Assembly (NCBI GenBank): GCA_030704615.1
Contig: JAKLZA010000019.1
Span: forward strand, 1 to 8,000
DNA from: Takakia lepidozioides
Lineage: Eukaryota > Plantae > Bryophyta
Direction: 5' to 3'
DNA length: 8,000 nucleotides
Shown here: piece after piece, positions 1-8,000 of the stretch
Layout: each line of letters begins with the position of its first letter
Position numbering within the stretch: position 1 is the first letter of the stretch
Translations under genes and position numbers: made by a program
The notes under the pieces: generated by a model
Databases searched by the model: none
What the model was told of the DNA's origin: nothing
What the model saw: only the letters and a program-made list of their open reading frames with translations

Positions 1-1
1 T

Positions 2-196
2 GTTGATGGCAGAGTTGACCCAAACTTGGCAGTGGTACCTGCAGGTTTGAGGTGCATGCTCTGTGGGTCTGCCAAAAGGGGCAGCCACCATGCTGGTGTG
101 TGATTGATGCTCAAAGGGTTGGCATGGGGATGCTTGACACCACCTCTTGAGAAGGTTCCTGACGGAGATTGGTTGTGTCCACACTGCTTGGGATAG
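2..196 (+). pseudogene. Degenerate PHD finger (C4HC3), probably the C-terminus of an LTR retrotransposon (Ty3/Gypsy-like) polyprotein
   Basis: Manual translation across two frameshifts and one in-frame stop gives VDGRVDPNLAVVPAGLRCMLCGSAK/GAATMLVCD*CSKGWH/GCLTPPLEKVPDGDWLCPHCLG* (TAG 194-196). The CxxC...CDxC...H.C...P.GDW.CPxC pattern is a canonical PHD finger. The retroelement assignment is inferred from the lack of introns and the downstream PPT-TG. Confidence 0.8.
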
Positions 197-740
197 TGGC
201 AGTGGACATGACTGGAGGCAGCTAACAAGACATGGAGGCCAAGCTCATAGGAGTCAATACATGAGATCCCAAGCTTAAGTTCATAGGTTGTAAGACGGCG
301 ACTAACGATGGGGCAACTCCTGCACCCGGCCTCTTGATCTATCGAGTTTGAGTGTAGTAGGGATAGTGGTGGAGGACTTAGTGAGCTATGGTCACTATCA
401 CATCTTGTGGCTACTTGGACTTAGAGGGACCTAAGCACCAGCTAGGGGGCAATTGTGTGGACTAGTGACTACCATAGTGGGCAGCATAGTGGCAGCCTAG
501 TGACTGACTAGTTGTAGCCTAGTGGTTGGACTAGTGGTGGACTAGTGATATACTAGTGTGTGGTGTGCATATGTGTTGTGTGGTTTTTGGACAGCGATGT
601 AGTTGTGTAGCGATATGTATGCGCACGACAGCTGTCAAGTTATTTTACCACTAGTGTGAAACTAGCTAGGAAATAGCTAGCTTTTACATATTGACATTTG
701 GGATTGGCCCAAGTGTCAATCCAGGGGTCAAGACAGATTT

Positions 741-749
741 AGGGGGGAA
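741..749 (+). other. Putative polypurine tract (PPT)
   Basis: AGGGGGGAA immediately 5' of TG, downstream of the retroelement-like ORF end. Confidence 0.5.
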
Positions 750-824
750 TGCTTGCGCGTGAGCCTGGCCTGTGAGCCTGTGAGCCTGTGAGCCTGGCTA
801 GGCTCACGCCACGTCAGCAAGCAT
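749..824. repeat. Imperfect inverted repeat enclosing GTGAGCCT 8-mer tandem copies
   Basis: ATGCTTGC (749-756) pairs with GCAAGCAT (817-824). GCGTGAGCCT (757-766) pairs with AGGCTCACGC (800-809). GTGAGCCT occurs at 759, 772, 780 and 788. Confidence 0.8.
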
Positions 825-835
825 CCACGTGTTCA

Positions 836-960
836 GGCCCTAATTCCGTGCTCCCCCCCCCCCCCCCCCTATTACCGCGGTTCCGTGCTCTCACCCTATT
901 ACCGTGACCCCCCCTTTTACCTATGTCCGTGCTCCCCCCCCCCCCCCCCCTATGTCCTAA
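836..960. repeat. Subterminal-like repeat block with two C17 tracts (possible DNA transposon end)
   Basis: TCCGTGCTC at 845, 882 and 926. C17 runs at 853-869 and 934-950. CCCTATTACCG at 867 and 894. The role as an element end is inferred. Confidence 0.65.
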
Positions 961-1034
961 TTTTCTATCCCTCTTACTGCCCCCACATGAATATTCCTTG
1001 TGGCCGAGAACAATGGCAGGTTTGCGGATGAATT

Positions 1035-1245
1035 TTGTGGGAGATCCTGACTTTGGAATGAGGAGATCCCCACTGAATCTGAAAAGAAAAAATGTTTTTT
1101 GGGCAAAGCAGTACATTCACTCCAACACACAAACATTGTGGGAGATCCTGACTTTGGAATGAGGAGATCGCCCACTACAGAACTGAATCTGAAAAGAAAA
1201 AATGTTTTTTTGGCAAAGCAGTACATTCACTCCAACACACAAACA
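1035..1245. repeat. Direct tandem duplication, 2 units (101 and 110 bp)
   Basis: TTGTGGGAGATCCTGACTTTGGAATGAGGAGATC...CAGTACATTCACTCCAACACACAAACA at 1035-1135 and 1136-1245. The second copy has a small insertion. Confidence 0.95.
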
Positions 1246-1858
1246 TTTTTCAATTCCGCACTCCGAGAAATACCGTAGGCAATCCCTAACTGTACTTACG
1301 GGAACGCGCAGAGAACTTGAAAACAGTATGGGATGGAAGCAAAGCCAAAACACAATTTATTCAGCCTCAGTACTTGAACCGTCAAGAAATATTGGAGGTT
1401 TCAGAGGAACCACTGCCAGAGTTAATAGCAATATCATCTATGAATACAACAGCACATACATGACGTTTTTTTTTTTCCACGACCTTTATGGAGATGCGAA
1501 TACAGTGTTTGTTCGGATAACACCGTGCGCAAGCTTCCGCGTAAACCGGCAAGCGGTTGGATCTAGGGGGACTCGGGGACATTAGTATCCTTGGAATCCG
1601 AAAGGTGTCTGCTGATTCAATGACTGGTGCAGAACTCTGGAAAGGAACAAGAGAAATGGTGGCAGATGTTAACATCCAGATATAGACAATGTTACGCAAT
1701 TTTTTCGAACGGGAACGACACAAGGAAATGCCACATATTTTGAACGACTACAGAAGAACTTACTCACACTCAAAATCGGAGTCCACGTCCAGATCCTCGT
1801 CAGGCGCTTCGGGCTCCTCCAGAAGTCCCTCTTTGGATGGGTAGAAGTAGTGTCCGAC

Positions 1859-2757
1859 TCAAAGCTGACGAAGCTCGCTCGAGAAGAGCTCCGTATCAGC
1901 TTCCATGCCGAAGAAGTGCCTTCCGGCGCTCTTGCAAGCATGAAAACATGCTCCTGCAAATCCAAGAAGAACGAGAAATAAAACAGGGTTTCCCTAAGGT
2001 TACTGCCCATATGTCAATCACAATGTAAAGTGCCCCACCTGTGCCCATAGACAAGTCGACCACTCGTCCACCATGACGGCTGCATGTCTCCACCAAAGTC
2101 TGCATGAAAGCTGGAGATTTCTCCCGTGCACCTCTCCAAGGGACACCAATCGACCTTTTCATAGTTCGACCCGAGTCCACGTAATTGAAGAGAACATCAT
2201 CCTCCATAGGCTCGCAGGTGGGTCAATATGAGCTGCAAGGTCCCTCATCTGGAACTCAGCAACACCAGGAGGAAGAGTGTCCTTCCGCCTCACCACCAGG
2301 CACAAAGCTTCGAACACCCGTGTCTGTCAACAATGAGGAAGAGAGCATGAGACAGAAGGCATAACCCAGCATTTTTATTTACCGAAAAAACAACGAAACA
2401 TGAATTGAAAGAACCAACTCACTTTCTGCCCCGGGAACTCGCCCTTCGTAAGAGGCAGAGTATTGATGCATGTCCAAGTTTTGATGACACGAAACCCGGA
2501 GGCTTTCATGTAGCTGAAAAGAGTTCTTCGGCCGACATGTCCTTTGACTGCATGAGAAGAAGCCCCCGAGTCCGAAAGGAATTTGTTGCTGAACGAGAAA
2601 GCCCACTGCCAATAACGAGAATCCGATTTGTTCCAAGTCGGGGTCGAATTGGAAGGGAACACATCAGGGACAGATAACCGTCAGGAATGTCCAGCACCAC
2701 AAGGTCAGTCGCGTATGCCTGCTGAACTCCATTCACCCATTCCGGTTTTTTTGTCAC
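1859..2757 (-). CDS. Beta-class amino-methyltransferase-like domain (last three exons)
   Basis: Motif order is catalytic-first: DLVVLDIPDG (motif IV-like, DIPD at 2691-2680), then FLSDSG (LkpgG-like), then PWRGAREKSPAFMQTLVETCSRHGGRVVDLSMGTG spliced to ACFHACKSAGRHFFGMEAD. This parallels the HPTxKP...VLDPFxGSGTT..AA...GR.FIG.E consensus of beta-class MTases. Confidence 0.8.
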
Positions 2758-5700
2758 CTACAGGGAAAAACAGGAGACAGTGTAAGAAGCCCAATCCAAA
2801 TCGAGCAGGAGATCAATCCCCTGGAAAAGCCACAACAAGATGCCAAAACACAATTATTCATACAACAGTTTAGACACAAGTGTTTACCTGAGTGAGGAAC
2901 GAAACAAGCATGTCCCATGATTTCGAGGGCACCCCTTTGAATGTGGACTTCCTGGACTCCATCATTGCAAGAAAACTTTCATTCAGCACCCTACGATTGA
3001 ACTGGCCCAAAACCCTGGAGGGATGTTCTCTCGCCTCGTAAGGCTGCTCCCTCGACTTTGATGTTTCTCCTATCCCTCCTTGCGGGAGAAGGCTCTCTGA
3101 CAGGAACCTCTGACGGTCCCTGTCCTTGCGGAGCTGCACTTTTCCCCTTCCCCTTAGGATCCCCGACAGTCTTCCCCTTTCGTTTTGGAGTGGCAGTTCT
3201 CTCGGCTCTTTTGCAGCCAGAGTAGAAATGATTCTGTCCTGAATGTCTTTGTCTGCCAATGGGGCAATCGCTGCGGCATTGTCGTTCAGGTTTCTCAAAA
3301 CAACTTCATCAAATGGTGTGTCCTGTTTTGGCAGGTCGAGGTACCACCCACAGTCTCTGAAGTGCGCCCTGCTCCAGTCTCTGGCAATACCAGCCGTGTA
3401 CATTGTCTTCTCATTGGAGGGGTCAGCCCATGAATAGATGAAGTCTGGGTCATCGCTAAGGTACTTTCCCGGTATGAGGATATGATACATATACCTGAAT
3501 CAAACACCAAAAACCCAGACAGTCAGTCAATCGGAAAATGGAAAAGAACAGACATTCAGAAGAAGATATTGAAATAAAGGAAGGGAACACCTGGTAATCA
3601 ACTTTTGCTGTCCAGAATCAACCTTGCGTTGACGCAATGTTGATTCGAGCAGAATGGGAAACACCTAGTGGTTACGTTGTATTGATAGAGACAACGACTG
3701 ACAAGTGCAATACAACATTGCGTCAACGCAATGTTGTTTTCACTAGATGAAATGGGAACAATGCCTGAAAACCACCATCTGACTATGTACTGCTATGGAT
3801 ATTCAACATTGCGTTGGCGCAATGTTGAATTCCTTTGTTGAAACAAACATCGATAATATATCTGATAATCGAAAGTCTCCTACAATTGCATGGAAGTTGG
3901 GGGATGCACAGGGACATTTCCATCAATCCATACCGCCAAACAACCTTGCGTCAACGCAAGTCTGTTTGTTGGCATAGTGAAAGCTGAAAATAGCATTTGA
4001 AATAGACTCCAAACATTGTTATGTTCAAGTTGGCAGAATTGGATCTGGATTTGAACTGCCCCAAACCAGAGGAAAAGGTACATAGTCTGCGTCTCATCAA
4101 CATTGCGTTGACGCAAGGCTGATTTTCCTGTCCATTCACCCCCATTCACATGCAATAAAACGCCAGTATGGGATACCCAGATATAGGTAAGTGAAACCAG
4201 GACCATGGGAAACAACTTTGCGTCAACGCAATGTTGCTGGACAGCACATTCAGAGCCCCCAGAGATCCCTCAAAGCCATGCAAATTCGCAAATCTGAAAG
4301 TATGACAGAAGATTGCAGATGCATGCCCTTCAAGTACCACAATTGAGTAAGGAGATCACACCTGTACAACACTCGTTTCATTGCTTGCTCGCTGTTCAGC
4401 TGGTTTTTGAACTCGTACGATCTGGAGATTCCTTTGTCTTTTTCAAACTCCCTGAAGAAGCAATTGTTCCAGACAGCGAGCTTCCACCTCCTGATATAGG
4501 CCTCCAGTGTGATCCGGGGGCAAGCCATCTGGATTTTGTAGTCTGCCATCGACTCAGCAAGTGCAGCCACTGCACGTTTTTCTAACTGCAACAAGAAAGC
4601 TTGTAAGAATTTTGGAGAGGTTGGGAGCGGAATTACGGAGCAACACACATGTCTGAAAATGGTTTGGTGGTATCCTTACCTGGCTCCAAAATGTGGCTTT
4701 GTGTAGCCACTGGTCGAATGTCTGGTCGCTTACAACTTTTATTGCTTGTGTCTTCGGGTCTCTCTCTGGAGTTGGAAACATATTCGTGTCTCTCACAAGA
4801 GGATCCGAGTTCCATATCTCCAACCACCTGATTTTCGTTGCATTGTCCACCATTGAAATGGAAAGGCGATGTAGTTTCTCCTGAGTCATTTCTGGCTTGG
4901 AGCCAAACTTGTCATAGTGCACTTTCACCTGCTCCAGAAATTCTGTGCCAAGCCCTGGATCTGCTATCCTGATTTGTTTGTCGAATGCACTCATGAGGTT
5001 CTTCCTTTGATTATTCATCTCGAACTTCATCGTGTCCTCAAGCCCAGATGCAGACCGCTGCTCTTCAGTGTGGGAATCATAGTACTCAGCTTTCGCCTTC
5101 AAGCCAGTTTCTGCTATTTCTTGCTGCATACATTGCAGGTAAAAAGAATGAAACACTGTCATTACTTGTGAGAAAATAGTAACAACAGGTAGTGTCAAGA
5201 AGCTTGCAGTGTCAAAAAGCAAGCAGTGTCAAGAAGCTTACAGTGTACATGTAGTCAAGGAAAGCCTCCCTTGTCAAGCTATACCATGTGCTTGTCTTCT
5301 TCTTCTCAGCACACCTCTTCATCTGCTGTGGACTAAGCACGTTCGTGAATGACTCCAGTGGCATCAGCCCTACCTTCTGGATGCGGAATAGAGTGTGGCA
5401 CAGATTGGTGGTCACATGAGATGTTTCGTTGGACCTGGAAAAACCGTCAACTCATAAGATGATTTCTAATTGTCGAAACGAGGAACAGACACAAAGATGG
5501 AGACTTACTTGTTTATGTCGTGCATGGCTGTCAAGAGCTGCGTGACATGCCCTTTGTGATCCAGAACCATGGAAACCACGCTCCAGTGCCATTCGATGTC
5601 GTCAGAGTGCATGCTTGAAATGTAATCCATCCAGGCAAGCAGTCTGTGGTTCCCATCCCAGACAAAAAACATCTTCCCCATGAATGCTTTTGTGGAGGTC

Positions 5701-6929
5701 TTCTTCGACAGCTTGAACTCGAACTCCCTGTTCACATCCCGCCAGCATTCATCCCAACTTTGCTCAATGTCCTCTGTTACAAGACACTCCTCTCCTTTTG
5801 TGTTCATAGTGGATACGTAGAACACTGCTGATCCCTTCACATAGCCGTGAACAAAGTCGTTCTTCACTTTGTTATCGTTCCTCAATGCCGGTCGAACAGC
5901 GGGCATGGATATCATCCTGCAAAGCGGAATGACCAGGTTTCCGCCGGAACCTCCATCGACAGAATCACCTTCGACGAGTTCACTTTTTGCCCACCCATTA
6001 TCTCCTCGGCCTTGTCTTCATAGTGTCCCTCCAGTGACTCTTCATCACCTTCACCTTCTGAAGCGGCCAAATCTTCCCCCTCGGCTTTCCTTTTTCTTTT
6101 CCTCTGCACAGAATTAATAATCTGTGAGTGTGAGATTGAGCTCCCATGCATCAACCTTGCTTTGACGCAAGGTTGATTGATGGGGAAGTAACTTAGACTG
6201 AAAGGCATACAGGAAATACGTTTGGACCCAAATTATGTTTTGCGTTGACGCAGGGTTGTTTTGGGAGCCTCGAAGAATGAACTTTCCCTACCTTACAGTG
6301 AGGAGAGTGGGATATCGGACGCATCCATTGTGCAAAGATATCATGAAAACCAGCCTTGCGTCAACGCAAGGTTGATTCCTGTGCAGCCTCTGTTGGTTTC
6401 ACTACAAGCTCTAAACATACAATATGCAGGTTGGGATCAACCTTGCGTTGACGCAAGGTTGATTGAGCTGTCTTATCGGGGTTCAGCGAAGCAAAATGTA
6501 CAGTAAATGGAGACTCCTGTCTCTGCTTCCTCTTTGAAATCCATGATGCGTCGGAAGCATCCATGTCTCTCTACCTTGATTGTAGTGCAGTTTCTACACT
6601 GTTTTATGCCCAGCAAAAAAGCATTGAGGTCGACTTCAACCTTGCGTTGACGCAAGGTTGATGTCCACCTCAATGCTTAGCATGAAACCGTACAGATTGT
6701 GGTGCAGTTTCTGCACTGTTTTGAGCCCAGCAAATACACTTTGGAGGTCGACTTCAACCTTGCGTTGACGCAAGGTTGATGTCGTCCTCAATGCTTAGCA
6801 TGAAACAGAGAGAGAAAAAGACAGAAACAGGGAGAGAAAAAGAAAGTTCGTAGCTACCTGGGGTTTCTGCTTTGCACTTGATGATGCTCCTGTCGCGTTC
6901 AATTTTTCCATGCGGTCTTCAGGTAGCAT
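1859..6929 (-). CDS. Multi-exon ParB/Srx-domain plus beta-class N6A/N4C DNA methyltransferase-like fusion protein (~950 aa), frameshifted as given (pseudogene or assembly indels)
   Basis: Phase-compatible GT-AG exon chain read by hand: 6929-6858 (tentative first exon), 6103-5509, 5434-5242, 5123-4680, 4585-4338 (alternative donor after 4362), 3494-2888, 2757-2423, 2323-2039, 1953-1859. The same frame resumes after TGA 1861-1859 with an acidic tail ending at TAA 1762-1760. Short introns are 74-130 nt with pyrimidine-rich acceptors. Frameshifts are needed at ~5943, ~2677, ~2221 and probably ~2563/2523. Confidence 0.8.
3615..4236. repeat. Intronic cluster 1: six copies of a 24-bp palindrome with unique spacers
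   Basis: Cores start at 3619, 3713, 3804, 3941, 4098 and 4213. Consensus CAACMTTGCGT(TG/CA)ACGCAAKGTTG. Gaps between cores are 70, 67, 113, 133 and 91 bp. Confidence 0.95.
5191..5246. repeat. 17-bp tandem repeat x3 at an intron 5' end
   Basis: AGTGTCAAGAAGCTTGC / AGTGTCAAAAAGCAAGC / AGTGTCAAGAAGCTTAC at 5191, 5208 and 5225. Confidence 0.85.
5509..5945 (-). CDS. ParB/Sulfiredoxin-like N-terminal domain (within exon 2)
   Basis: LVIPLCRMISMPAVRPAL...GYVKGSAVFYVS...MFFVWDGNHRLLAW. The hydrophobic-DGxHR-hydrophobic motif matches the ParB/Srx-fold nucleotide-binding signature. It is preceded by RKRKRK (NLS-like, 6103-6086) and an acidic stretch. Confidence 0.75.
6152..6778. repeat. Intronic cluster 2: six copies of the same 24-bp palindrome
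   Basis: Cores start at 6152, 6235 (degenerate left arm), 6351, 6438, 6637 and 6755. Gaps are 59, 92, 63, 175 and 94 bp. Confidence 0.95.
6577..6807. repeat. 118-bp-period tandem duplication containing the last two palindromes
   Basis: GATTGTRGTGCAGTTTCTRCACTGTTTT...GAGGTCGACTTCAACCTTGCGTTGACGCAAGGTTGATGTC...CCTCAATGCTTAGCATGAAAC occurs twice, offset by 118 bp. Confidence 0.9.
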
Positions 6930-7307
6930 GCTTCCAAGGAGGTCGCGATGGTGCGAAACAGGGGGCAGACGGCCGCGTTCCTACGTCCGTTTGTTCTCCC
7001 TGGTCTTTGAAGGCCAGGTTCTGTACACTCACTGCTTCCTCCCGAGCCCAGCTTACTTCCTCCTCATCCCCTCCTTCGATTGCAGGTTGCTCGTCTGTCG
7101 CCTCCTGGATCACTTCAAGACCTTCCTCTCCACACTGCGGTTGCTGTATCCTCTTTTGCCCTGCCTCTTCCTCATCTCGCGGGGTTTCTTCTCCCATTCT
7201 AAGCTCCCGTCTCGCCTTTCTCATCCTCTCCTTAGCGCGTGCCCTTTCCTTGTTTGACGTGAAATACAGTGTTCTTCGACGCCTGCTTCTCCCTCGAAGT
7301 AGGGTCT
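6919..7307 (-). CDS. Basic-then-acidic low-complexity ORF; separate small gene or frameshifted 5' exon of the ParB-MTase gene
   Basis: Open frame RGRSRRRRTLYFTSNKERARAKERMRKARRELRMGEETPRDEEE... with strong purine (GA) bias on the minus strand and a candidate acceptor TTCCGCAG ending at 7308. No recognisable domain. Confidence 0.45.
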
Positions 7308-7488
7308 CTGCGGAATCCAGGGTTGCAAAGAAAATGAGTTACTCAGGCAAAAACACTATCTGAGGTTCATCGCGGGGCCTTCAACGCCAAGATGTTCGCT
7401 CGGACCGTTCAGTGCGCCACCGACTCAATCCACATGCATGGCGAACACGTGTCTATGTAGTCGTTATGTAAAACGGCCGGAATTATTG

Positions 7489-7646
7489 AAACATCATCCT
7501 TCCAAAAATGTAATCGGGTATCTCTACCCCTATGTTTAACGGCGGAGATCAATGAATCATCATCCTTACAAAATTCGTTGGGGTCTAACCCTATGTTTAA
7601 CGACAGATATCATTCAAACATCATCCATCCAAAAATCGTTAGGGTG
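7489..7646. repeat. Imperfect ~61-66-bp tandem repeat (about 2.5 units) in the intergenic/putative promoter region
   Basis: CATCATCC at 7492, 7558 and 7619. CCCTATGTTTAACG at 7528 and 7589. Confidence 0.75.
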
Positions 7647-7747
7647 TAATCGACTCTCATCTGAAAAAATTCATTGTTGGGTAATTTAGGGTGGAATGTT
7701 CCAGAGGAATGAGAATTATATTCAGTTGTGCAGCGGTGCAGTCGCCG

Positions 7748-8000
7748 TCAAAATTGAATGGAAATGGGCATCTCTTCTGGCCTCCCTGACATGACAACGA
7801 CATTGGCGGCTCTGTCAGTGAATCTGTCAGCTATTGCACTGGTGGTGCAATTCTGAGAGAACAATTGTGTATGAGGACGCCAAAACTCCACTCTCACACA
7901 ACCTGCATTCAGAAGCACCATCGGACTTTGAACTGTACTTTCTGTAGCAACATCGACATATGGCTTCCCAGGTTGTGGGCTCCCTTGACGCGGACTTCTT
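7748..8000 (-). CDS. Partial ORF with CxxC-x13-CxxC zinc ribbon, resembling the RPA70 C-terminal OB fold (truncated by window edge, one frameshift near 7850)
   Basis: KKSASREPTTWEAICRCCYRKYSSKSDGASECRLCESGVLASSYTIVLSE then, in the adjacent frame, CTTSAIADRFTDRAANVV. This resembles the Y.AC..C.KK...C..C...Y.l.l.lsD.Tg...F.d.A pattern. Recognised by eye only. Confidence 0.4.
   Translation of the reverse strand, partial: RSPRQGSPQPGKPYVDVATESTVQSPMVLLNAGCVRVEFWRPHTQLFSQNCTTSAIADRFTDRAANVVVMSGRPEEMPISIQF

Follow-up and report, generated by a model that had tools for sequence, protein, structure and literature searches.

Intronic palindrome arrays in a ParB-like accessory gene from a probable family of Mutator-like transposons in seedless land plants

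Here we describe two arrays of a 24-bp palindrome in an 8,000-nucleotide stretch of the genome of Takakia lepidozioides (Bryophyta; GenBank assembly GCA_030704615.1, contig JAKLZA010000019.1, positions 1 to 8,000; hereafter the window), both of which lie in introns of a gene whose product is predicted to combine a ParB/Srx-fold domain with a methylase-like domain. The palindrome array is a real and selected-looking feature of what is likely a family of Mutator-like transposons. We consider it somewhat better than an even chance that the palindromes are double-stranded binding sites of this accessory protein, in the manner of VANC proteins in VANDAL elements.

Two palindrome arrays in the window

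The palindromes share the consensus CAACMTTGCGT-YR-ACGCAAKGTTG over 24 bp. Scanning the window for this pattern with up to three mismatches returned 11 matches, compared with a mean of 0.00 and a maximum of 0 in 200 shuffles, and a twelfth, more decayed copy at 6235-6258 emerged from the repeat family of 12 copies and from the half-site and core scans. The twelve pattern copies counted by an earlier note on this DNA are thus eleven at this threshold plus one that can be found only as a decayed copy. Neither half-sites (two mismatches) nor cores (three mismatches) occur outside the two arrays in the whole 8 kb, so that pattern, half-site and core scans together confirm six palindromes in each of two long introns and none elsewhere in the window. 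The first six copies listed here form the array in 3619-4236 and the last six that in 6152-6778; none is assigned to a strand.

3619 to 3642, palindrome copy 1, centre TG
3713 to 3736, palindrome copy 2, centre CA
3804 to 3827, palindrome copy 3, centre TG
3941 to 3964, palindrome copy 4, centre CA
4098 to 4121, palindrome copy 5, centre TG
4213 to 4236, palindrome copy 6, centre CA
6152 to 6175, palindrome copy 7, centre TG
6235 to 6258, palindrome copy 8, left arm decayed, centre TG
6351 to 6374, palindrome copy 9, centre CA
6438 to 6461, palindrome copy 10, centre TG
6637 to 6660, palindrome copy 11, in unit 1 of a 118-bp tandem duplication
6755 to 6778, palindrome copy 12, in unit 2 of the 118-bp duplication; 6687-6818 is skipped in some contigs of related copies

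Within the arrays the palindrome columns are conserved and the flanks are not. The spacers are 59-175 bp long and essentially without mutual similarity: only 4 of 90 spacer comparisons scored better than all 200 shuffles, and the sole strong one is the tandem duplication at 6578-6806, so the view that the motif has been kept among mostly unrelated spacers holds. On the plus strand the centre of the palindrome reads TG in 8 copies, CA in 4 and CG in none, and 23 of the 24 CpGs in the arms of the twelve palindromes are intact; the observed/expected ratio of CpG in the spacers of the two array introns is 0.34 and 0.46. The simplest reading of this contrast between centre and arms is that an ancestral palindrome was perfect and would have lost its unread central CpG to decay as its arms were kept. 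CG centres persist in some copies of related palindrome families (7 of 49 in motif A, described below, and in locus L026). The presence of both centre orientations, TG and CA, fits a double-stranded site.

An exact search of prokaryote genomes and viral contigs gave 0 matches to the window motif. We rejected a CRISPR-like or integron-like array, given that spacer lengths vary threefold, that related arrays are plain tandem repeats, and that neither a nuclease nor an integrase was seen. Single host contigs bridge the palindrome regions from 3645 to 6635 and from 6391 to 6734; these are possibly deletions between motif copies in other members of the family, or short chance matches.

Palindromes of homologous loci

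A scan of Joint Genome Institute (JGI) metagenomes yielded 126 stretches that encode a relative of the protein, of which 80 were kept and fell into 50 non-redundant clusters; no homologous locus was found in viral contigs. The window motif is absent from the 80 loci, the core scan giving one degenerate match only, and at least seven other palindrome types are present in them. Locus L006 carries 16-17 copies of GAGGTGCC-n6-GGCACCTC, L012 carries TATTGGCGG-YR-CCGCCAATA, and the palindromes of L026 and L041 are based on CATATG and GTTTCAC, respectively. Two further types, motif A (AACTTTYGGYRCCRAAAGTT) and motif B (CCAAGCT-nn-AGCTTGG), are joined by a GGATCC-centred palindrome with only 1-2 copies per short contig.

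These palindromes tend to lie near the gene. For motifs A and B, 52 of 54 matches fall within -2 to +3 kb of the codons for the DGNH motif of the ParB-like domain (177 of ~428 kb), compared with 7 of 21 matches in the same zone for two unrelated palindromic repeats (X and Y). When palindrome families of at least three copies were sought de novo, with the window left out, they were found in 12 of 43 zones of 2 kb near the gene and in 4 of 87 control zones (Fisher p 3e-4). The proposed check for homologs with intronic palindrome arrays of their own came out positive for some loci: the arrays of L006 lie in the first intron and after the equivalent of exon 4, and those of L015, L031 and L055 lie before the exon with methyltransferase motif IV. 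The intron that holds the downstream array thus differs by lineage, from which we take the arrays to track the accessory gene and not the element ends or the transposase gene. In a tree of the ParB-like domain (44 rows, 10 of 51 representative loci with fewer than 100 aligned residues being left out, and the label of L028 resting partly on weak matches), motif type follows clades, as is expected from kinship alone.

In L006, 89 of 105 same-strand spacer pairs are homologous, and tandem periods of 64 bp and 51 bp are found in L012 and L031. From these sequences, tandem duplication appears to build the arrays, which runs counter to the argument of the earlier note that simple tandem amplification does not explain them; the window array looks like an older stage of which only the motif survives. 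The 51-bp arrays were also considered as a coding repeat of 17 residues, a candidate discarded on their position between the splice donor and the motif-IV exon. We likewise treated as chance the likeness of the L041 motif to the bacterial ParB site parS, some of its copies pointing to CpG decay of a different core. The L026 array (~7416-8589) has a core that is TGCGT-CG-ACGCA-like after CpG decay and resembles the window core despite the distance between the proteins. Two palindrome types are interleaved in one array in L012 (2-1560) and in L025, L029, L044 and L068, an arrangement that could serve a pair of readers such as the transposase and the accessory protein.

The tandem origin evident in L006, L012 and L031 also bears on a reading without a protein reader, in which the palindromes act as structures, be it intronic RNA hairpins or cruciforms in the DNA, or simply arise as side effects of tandem duplication and gene conversion. 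Every copy in the window can indeed fold (-3 to -13.9 kcal/mol as DNA), and positions 5 and 20, mostly C-G in intron 1, are A-T in two intron-5 copies, which looks like homogenisation within introns. However, these positions are not A-T in four of the six intron-5 copies, three of which are mismatched (C-T, A-G and T-T), the loop has just 2-4 bases, and an Rfam search gave 0 matches. Moreover, sequence has been conserved beyond pairing between introns 1.9 kb apart after spacer similarity vanished, and the array position recurs across lineages with unrelated sequences. We regard this reading as improbable.

It is at least as improbable, in our judgement, that a host transcription factor is recruited to the sites or that they are left over from some unrelated small repeat that had inserted into long introns. 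These plant contigs commonly contain palindromic repeats with no link to the gene, as motifs X and Y and the four positive control zones illustrate, but such repeats have no positional bias toward the gene. The gene-associated motif, in contrast, changes completely between lineages and keeps its position, and the window copies have no shared surrounding repeat body.

The gene that carries the arrays

The gene is on the minus strand and has nine modelled exons and eight introns, all of them GT-AG. The two array introns are 754 and 867 bp long and the other six 74-130 bp. The bounds first given for the array introns stand for 6857-6104; those given as 4337-3495 become 4361-3495, the donor of the second array intron being set at 4361 by homology across the junction (KRVLYR/YMYHIL compared with NRLIYRYWKHIL). 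The modelled features, all on the minus strand, are as follows.

6858 to 7330, exon 1, low complexity with a basic 'LYF[ST]S.K' stretch; 5' end uncertain, apparent frameshift near 6975
6104 to 6857, intron 1 with the array at 6152-6778, 754 bp, GT-AG, predicted
5509 to 6103, exon 2, ParB/Srx-fold domain (IPLCR, VRP, DGNHR); frameshift near 5945-5990
5242 to 5434, exon 3, helical region
4680 to 5123, exon 4, long helix and helical region
4362 to 4585, exon 5
3495 to 4361, intron 5 with the array at 3619-4236, 867 bp, GT-AG, predicted, with homology across the junction
2888 to 3494, exon 6, conserved block and low-complexity linker
2423 to 2757, exon 7, motif-IV-like methyltransferase strand (VVLDIPD ... 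PTWN), frameshifted
2039 to 2323, exon 8, stretch like an S-adenosylmethionine (SAM)-binding motif (VVDLSMGTG); frameshift near 2225
1760 to 1953, exon 9, end of the methyltransferase fold; a TGA near 1860 may be premature, and an 85-bp intron precedes the exon

Many divergent contigs assembled from host reads span the whole gene, which therefore is multi-copy, in agreement with the earlier proposal that it sits in a multi-copy element. Single-base indels separate other copies from the window copy at 5945, 3064, 2672 and 2530, positions that coincide or nearly coincide with its frame changes. The window copy is most likely a pseudogene, assembly error being the alternative. One contig, from a run that we guess to be RNA, joins 1768-1952 to 2038-2281 with the last intron skipped and differs in 17 letters, a weak hint that a relative of the gene is transcribed and spliced. 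A short basic motif, rich in R and K and followed by LYF[ST]S.K, is common to first exons that cannot otherwise be aligned (6919-7338 in the window and 1123-1548 in L006).

Predicted domains of the accessory protein

Homologs of the protein occur in mosses, liverworts and lycophytes, including Ceratodon purpureus, Riccia sorocarpa (with many paralogs) and Selaginella moellendorffii. One full-length homolog, P0006, is matched by 856 representative proteins at E 0.001 or better, most of them fragments. An AlphaFold2 model of its residues 205-610, built from 97 sequences, has a predicted local distance difference test (pLDDT) mostly of 90 or more over the first domain, and this modelled N-terminal domain is 51% identical to the window exon; a single-sequence model of the window exon itself reached a pLDDT of 35 and was discarded. 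Compared with 48,161 chains, the P0006 model has as its six best structural matches only ParB/Srx proteins (KorB, the free serine kinase SerK, PadC, a Pnob8-like ParB, SbnI and sulfiredoxin), with Z values of 6.5-7.7 over a coiled-coil background at 5.8. The best of them, KorB, aligns over 94 residues with a root-mean-square deviation of 2.7 (Z 7.7). All of these Z values are below 8, and the case for the fold is the agreement of the six matches together with the Foldseek ranking, which places the same superfamily first. The residues VRP and DGNHR are conserved across the family alignment. The first domain is thus predicted to adopt a ParB/Srx fold, and the ParB-like N-terminal domain read from the window finds support in the model of this homolog. 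A homodimer prediction scored 0.00 and was returned without a verdict.

The C-terminal domain of P0006 matches PF01555 with E 4.9e-7 over profile positions 2-217, and that of a second homolog, P0028, with E 1.9e-8; the window exons align to both, and Pfam gives no domain match on the window exons alone. Sequence searches of the PDB gave only weak matches to beta-class methylases (E 0.05). PF01555 methyltransferases have a catalytic consensus of the type [DS]PP[YF]. In this family, motif IV has the form D-x-P-Y/F (DTPF, DQPY or DQPF) in only three proteins, P0006, P0028 and P0052, and a conserved P-x-W-N follows it. Methyltransferase activity is uncertain because motif IV is mostly non-canonical, so that, of the methyltransferase domain proposed earlier, the PF01555 assignment stands in the homologs and the canonical catalytic motif mostly does not, the window copy being broken as well. 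No ParA was seen among 12 open reading frames (ORFs) of the window or among a further set of 27 ORFs, 25 of them from the homologous loci and two from the window, although no search was aimed at ParA.

The host element and its transposase

A divergent and decayed gene matching a protein that we label P0178 lies upstream in 9 of the 16 loci with at least 6 kb of upstream DNA, and a P0178-like match lies downstream in 1 of the 16 with 6 kb downstream. Pfam gives no match to P0178; in a language-model comparison (Atlas) its neighbours are clusters of Mutator-like elements, the best at 0.93 with 153 of 256 features. The transposase loci encode a Cys/His-rich N-terminal region followed by D, D, a CxxH-like motif and E, which we take to be the motif order of Mutator transposases, and we presume the N-terminal region to resemble a GCM-type DNA-binding domain, a label to which Pfam gives no match. 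The Mutator-like transposases with such an N-terminus that Pfam misses are P0178, P0188, P0193 and the product of L071 (~4000-5700). Judged by its sequences, the element is likely a Mutator-like transposon of seedless land plants. The window reaches only 2.3 kb beyond the DGNH codons on the upstream side and so ends before the distance of 3.5-8.7 kb at which the transposase gene is found in most relatives; the window's own copy would presumably have one as well.

The idea of a self-contained ParB-parS-like and methyltransferase system is weakened by this finding, as relatives often have a second candidate binder in the divergent transposase. The main rival to binding by the accessory protein is that the element transposase reads the sites through its N-terminal zinc-binding domain, with the arrays as internal enhancers of transposition or as targets of transposase-driven activation. 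The upstream position of the transposase gene and its Cys/His-rich N-terminus speak for this reading, as does the closeness of the intron-1 array to the shared promoter region. In published work, the AtMu1 transposase alone activates cognate copies (10.64898/2026.08.24.746577). However, the peaks of the AtMu1 transposase are at terminal repeats (10.64898/2026.08.24.746577), and the arrays are internal, in introns of the accessory gene and up to 3 kb into it, with none in the modelled end at 744-960 or in the transposase zone. We think it unlikely that the transposase is the reader.

Comparison of long loci gave no convincing pair of terminal inverted repeats, which non-TIR Mutator-like elements lack in any case. 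The window holds only one element end; the other, and with it any target-site duplication of the 8-11 bp usual for Mutator-like elements, would lie beyond it. A repeat of far higher read depth ends at 743 in all four read runs, and the ParB-methylase element seems to have inserted there.

744 to 960, no strand, candidate element end; the high-depth repeat breaks off at 743, and short direct repeats and C-runs follow

Within this candidate end lie a hairpin of 20 bp at 788-807, several copies of the 8-bp repeat GCCTGTGA, and units of TCCGTGCTC with a C-run that recur. The very high-depth repeat at 1-743 is likely the end of a long terminal repeat (LTR) retrotransposon, with short tandem repeats at 473-563 and, at ~50-196, a decayed PHD finger (weak Pfam match, E 0.014). 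Downstream of the gene stop, at 1035-1247, two sets of near-perfect direct repeats, of 37 bp and of 66 bp, interleave. Three tandem units of 61-66 bp lie at 7457-7649, where the promoter is likely to be, on the side of the gene that faces the presumed transposase.

Palindromes as putative binding sites

We favour binding by the accessory protein because the arrays follow the introns of its gene, change with the clade and have arms that resist CpG decay, and because ParB-family proteins read palindromes (10.1101/2021.05.05.442573). In the mechanism that we propose, intact copies of the element would supply the protein, which would bind as a dimer with each subunit taking one half-site of the palindrome, accumulate over the clusters of sites, and mark the element or shield it. 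The purpose would most likely be escape from host silencing by 5-methylcytosine (5mC) or regulation of the element's own transcription. Arrays would arise through tandem duplication inside introns, where they carry no coding cost; the spacers would then drift as selection keeps the motif, and each protein clade would end with a motif of its own. The sequences and models directly provide the motif, its position, the gene family, the fold model, the clade-specific arrays and the linkage to a transposase in relatives; from these we infer who binds, the dimer geometry and any nucleotide-driven spreading, methylation or anti-silencing.

Several observations weigh against this reading. Frameshifts interrupt the window copy. 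The ParB/Srx fold includes kinases and sulfiredoxin that do not read DNA, and SerK, SbnI and Srx are among the top matches; the top Foldseek matches (Noc, Srx and KorB) all have E >0.001. Beyond the ParB domain, the matches listed include no helix-turn-helix (HTH) and no other known DNA-binding fold, but a single domain and a coiled helix took up the whole list, so that the model past residue 190 was barely probed. Motif IV is without its aromatic residue in the window (DIPD) and in the other forms seen (DVPE, DAPE, DYPE, DIPE, DMPD, DIPT and DMPS). Among the homologous loci, the de novo rule detects no array in 31 of the 43 near-gene zones, and two of its 12 positives (L058 and L077) resemble simple repeats. 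Motifs A and B were selected once they had been sighted near genes, and the loci are related to one another, with labels in common among kin; co-evolution is therefore not shown by the p-value or by the tree. Finally, the motifs differ between the sister loci L026 and L041, and the GGATCC type occurs in two clades that are not each other's sisters.

A bolder version of the accessory-protein reading would have a ParB clamp load at the intronic palindromes and spread in a nucleotide-dependent manner, with the methylase fold writing N4-methylcytosine (4mC) or N6-methyladenine (6mA), or flipping and shielding cytosines, and thereby defeating 5mC silencing. The DUF3723 proteins of Starship elements and PAG3 of red algae would then be the fungal and algal branches of one ParB anti-silencing family. 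We hold this version to be doubtful, about as unlikely as reading by the transposase.

Comparison with known systems

The Plavaka PAG cassette of the red alga Bostrychia is the nearest anatomical precedent, and with it the self-binding idea has been published before, for a different lineage and a different domain fusion. This cassette likewise has a transposon accessory gene with a ParB domain, PAG3, beside tandem arrays of inverted repeats; a role in binding the DNA of its own element and modifying it has been proposed, and a PF01555 methylase gene, PAG2, is part of the cassette (10.1101/2025.02.11.637652). Mutator elements of Chondrus are reported to have homologs as well (10.1101/2025.02.11.637652). 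In Plavaka, however, one gene fuses ParB to a 2-oxoglutarate (2OG) oxygenase and another joins the methylase with SET, on EnSpm/Plavaka elements, whereas the window family joins ParB and a methylase-like domain in one protein, has the arrays inside the introns of that gene, goes with a Mutator-like transposase and occurs in seedless land plants; the two ParB domains are likened by description.

VANDAL elements share with the window family a Mutator-like element with an accessory gene and dense family-specific motifs in non-coding parts, introns of the binder gene included. Indeed, VANC21 motifs lie in VANC21 introns, the motifs were gained via tandem repeats, protein and motif diverge between families, and anti-silencing has been shown for VANC (PMC5735166). 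VANC proteins have DUF1985/DUF287 and a 9-bp directional motif, whereas the window family has ParB/Srx and PF01555 and palindromes of 16-26 bp; DUF1985/DUF287 were not found in the full-length homologs, for which Pfam scans gave PF01555 or nothing. The window family would work like VANDAL/VANC and is not a member of it, as the domains differ and the motifs are palindromic.

A ParB/Srx-fold N-domain and clustered palindromic sites near the gene are also the likeness to bacterial ParB-parS, KorB and Noc (10.1101/2021.05.05.442573). Here, in contrast, the sites exceed 16 bp and are unrelated in sequence, a methylase-like domain is fused, no HTH is matched and no ParA is seen in the window, and the segregation role of ParB-parS has no obvious meaning for a chromosomal transposon. 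A full ParB-parS system has an HTH domain for reading the site, a ParA ATPase as partner, and a ParB that binds CTP, loads as a clamp and spreads. The window family is not ParABS in the strict sense.

In the language-model comparison, DUF3723 (PF12520) clusters are the best neighbours of the ParB-like domain (P0006 215-460; 0.96, 184 of 256 features). DUF3723 genes are accessory genes of large eukaryotic transposons, the Starships, with a function described as unknown (10.1101/2025.02.28.640899). They are fungal and tied to tyrosine-recombinase elements, none of 97 family members has a Pfam match to PF12520, and ParB goes unmentioned in the sections of the DUF3723 literature consulted. DUF3723 may be a ParB/Srx-fold protein, which we offer as a lead only.

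The PF01555 fold, with a catalytic-type strand before the SAM-binding stretch, is common to the eukaryotic beta-class N6/N4 methyltransferases such as DN4MT1 of Marchantia. DN4MT1 has TSPPY and belongs to a two-gene host system, whereas the window family is multi-copy, fused to ParB and mostly without the aromatic residue of the motif. The rotifer N4CMT is reportedly another eukaryotic amino-methyltransferase of the beta class. The Dam family with a fused ParB-HTH, of chlorophytes and chytrids, belongs to another methylase group (PMC4738411). Further related literature includes 10.1101/2021.02.12.428880, PMC6446971, PMC6431247 and 10.1101/2025.11.25.690456. We found no published description of a land-plant family of ParB-methylase fusions in the literature searched; Repbase entries, subscription journals and preprint supplements (Bostrychia Supplemental Table 6, Fig. 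13) were outside the search and may list the family.

Implications

According to the Bostrychia preprint, no transposon other than VANDAL is known to bind its own sequence and modify it (10.1101/2025.02.11.637652); the red-algal ParB case so far stands as a proposal. In the family described here, protein clades can be paired with their palindromes across seedless land plants, and annotated genes are available from Ceratodon purpureus, Riccia sorocarpa and Selaginella moellendorffii. If binding is true, a ParB-type domain would be at work on eukaryotic chromatin. The proposed system would then be a second independent anti-silencing design in plants and a possible source of 4mC/6mA in bryophyte genomes, would give a handle on the Starship gene DUF3723, and could give sequence-specific epigenome tools.

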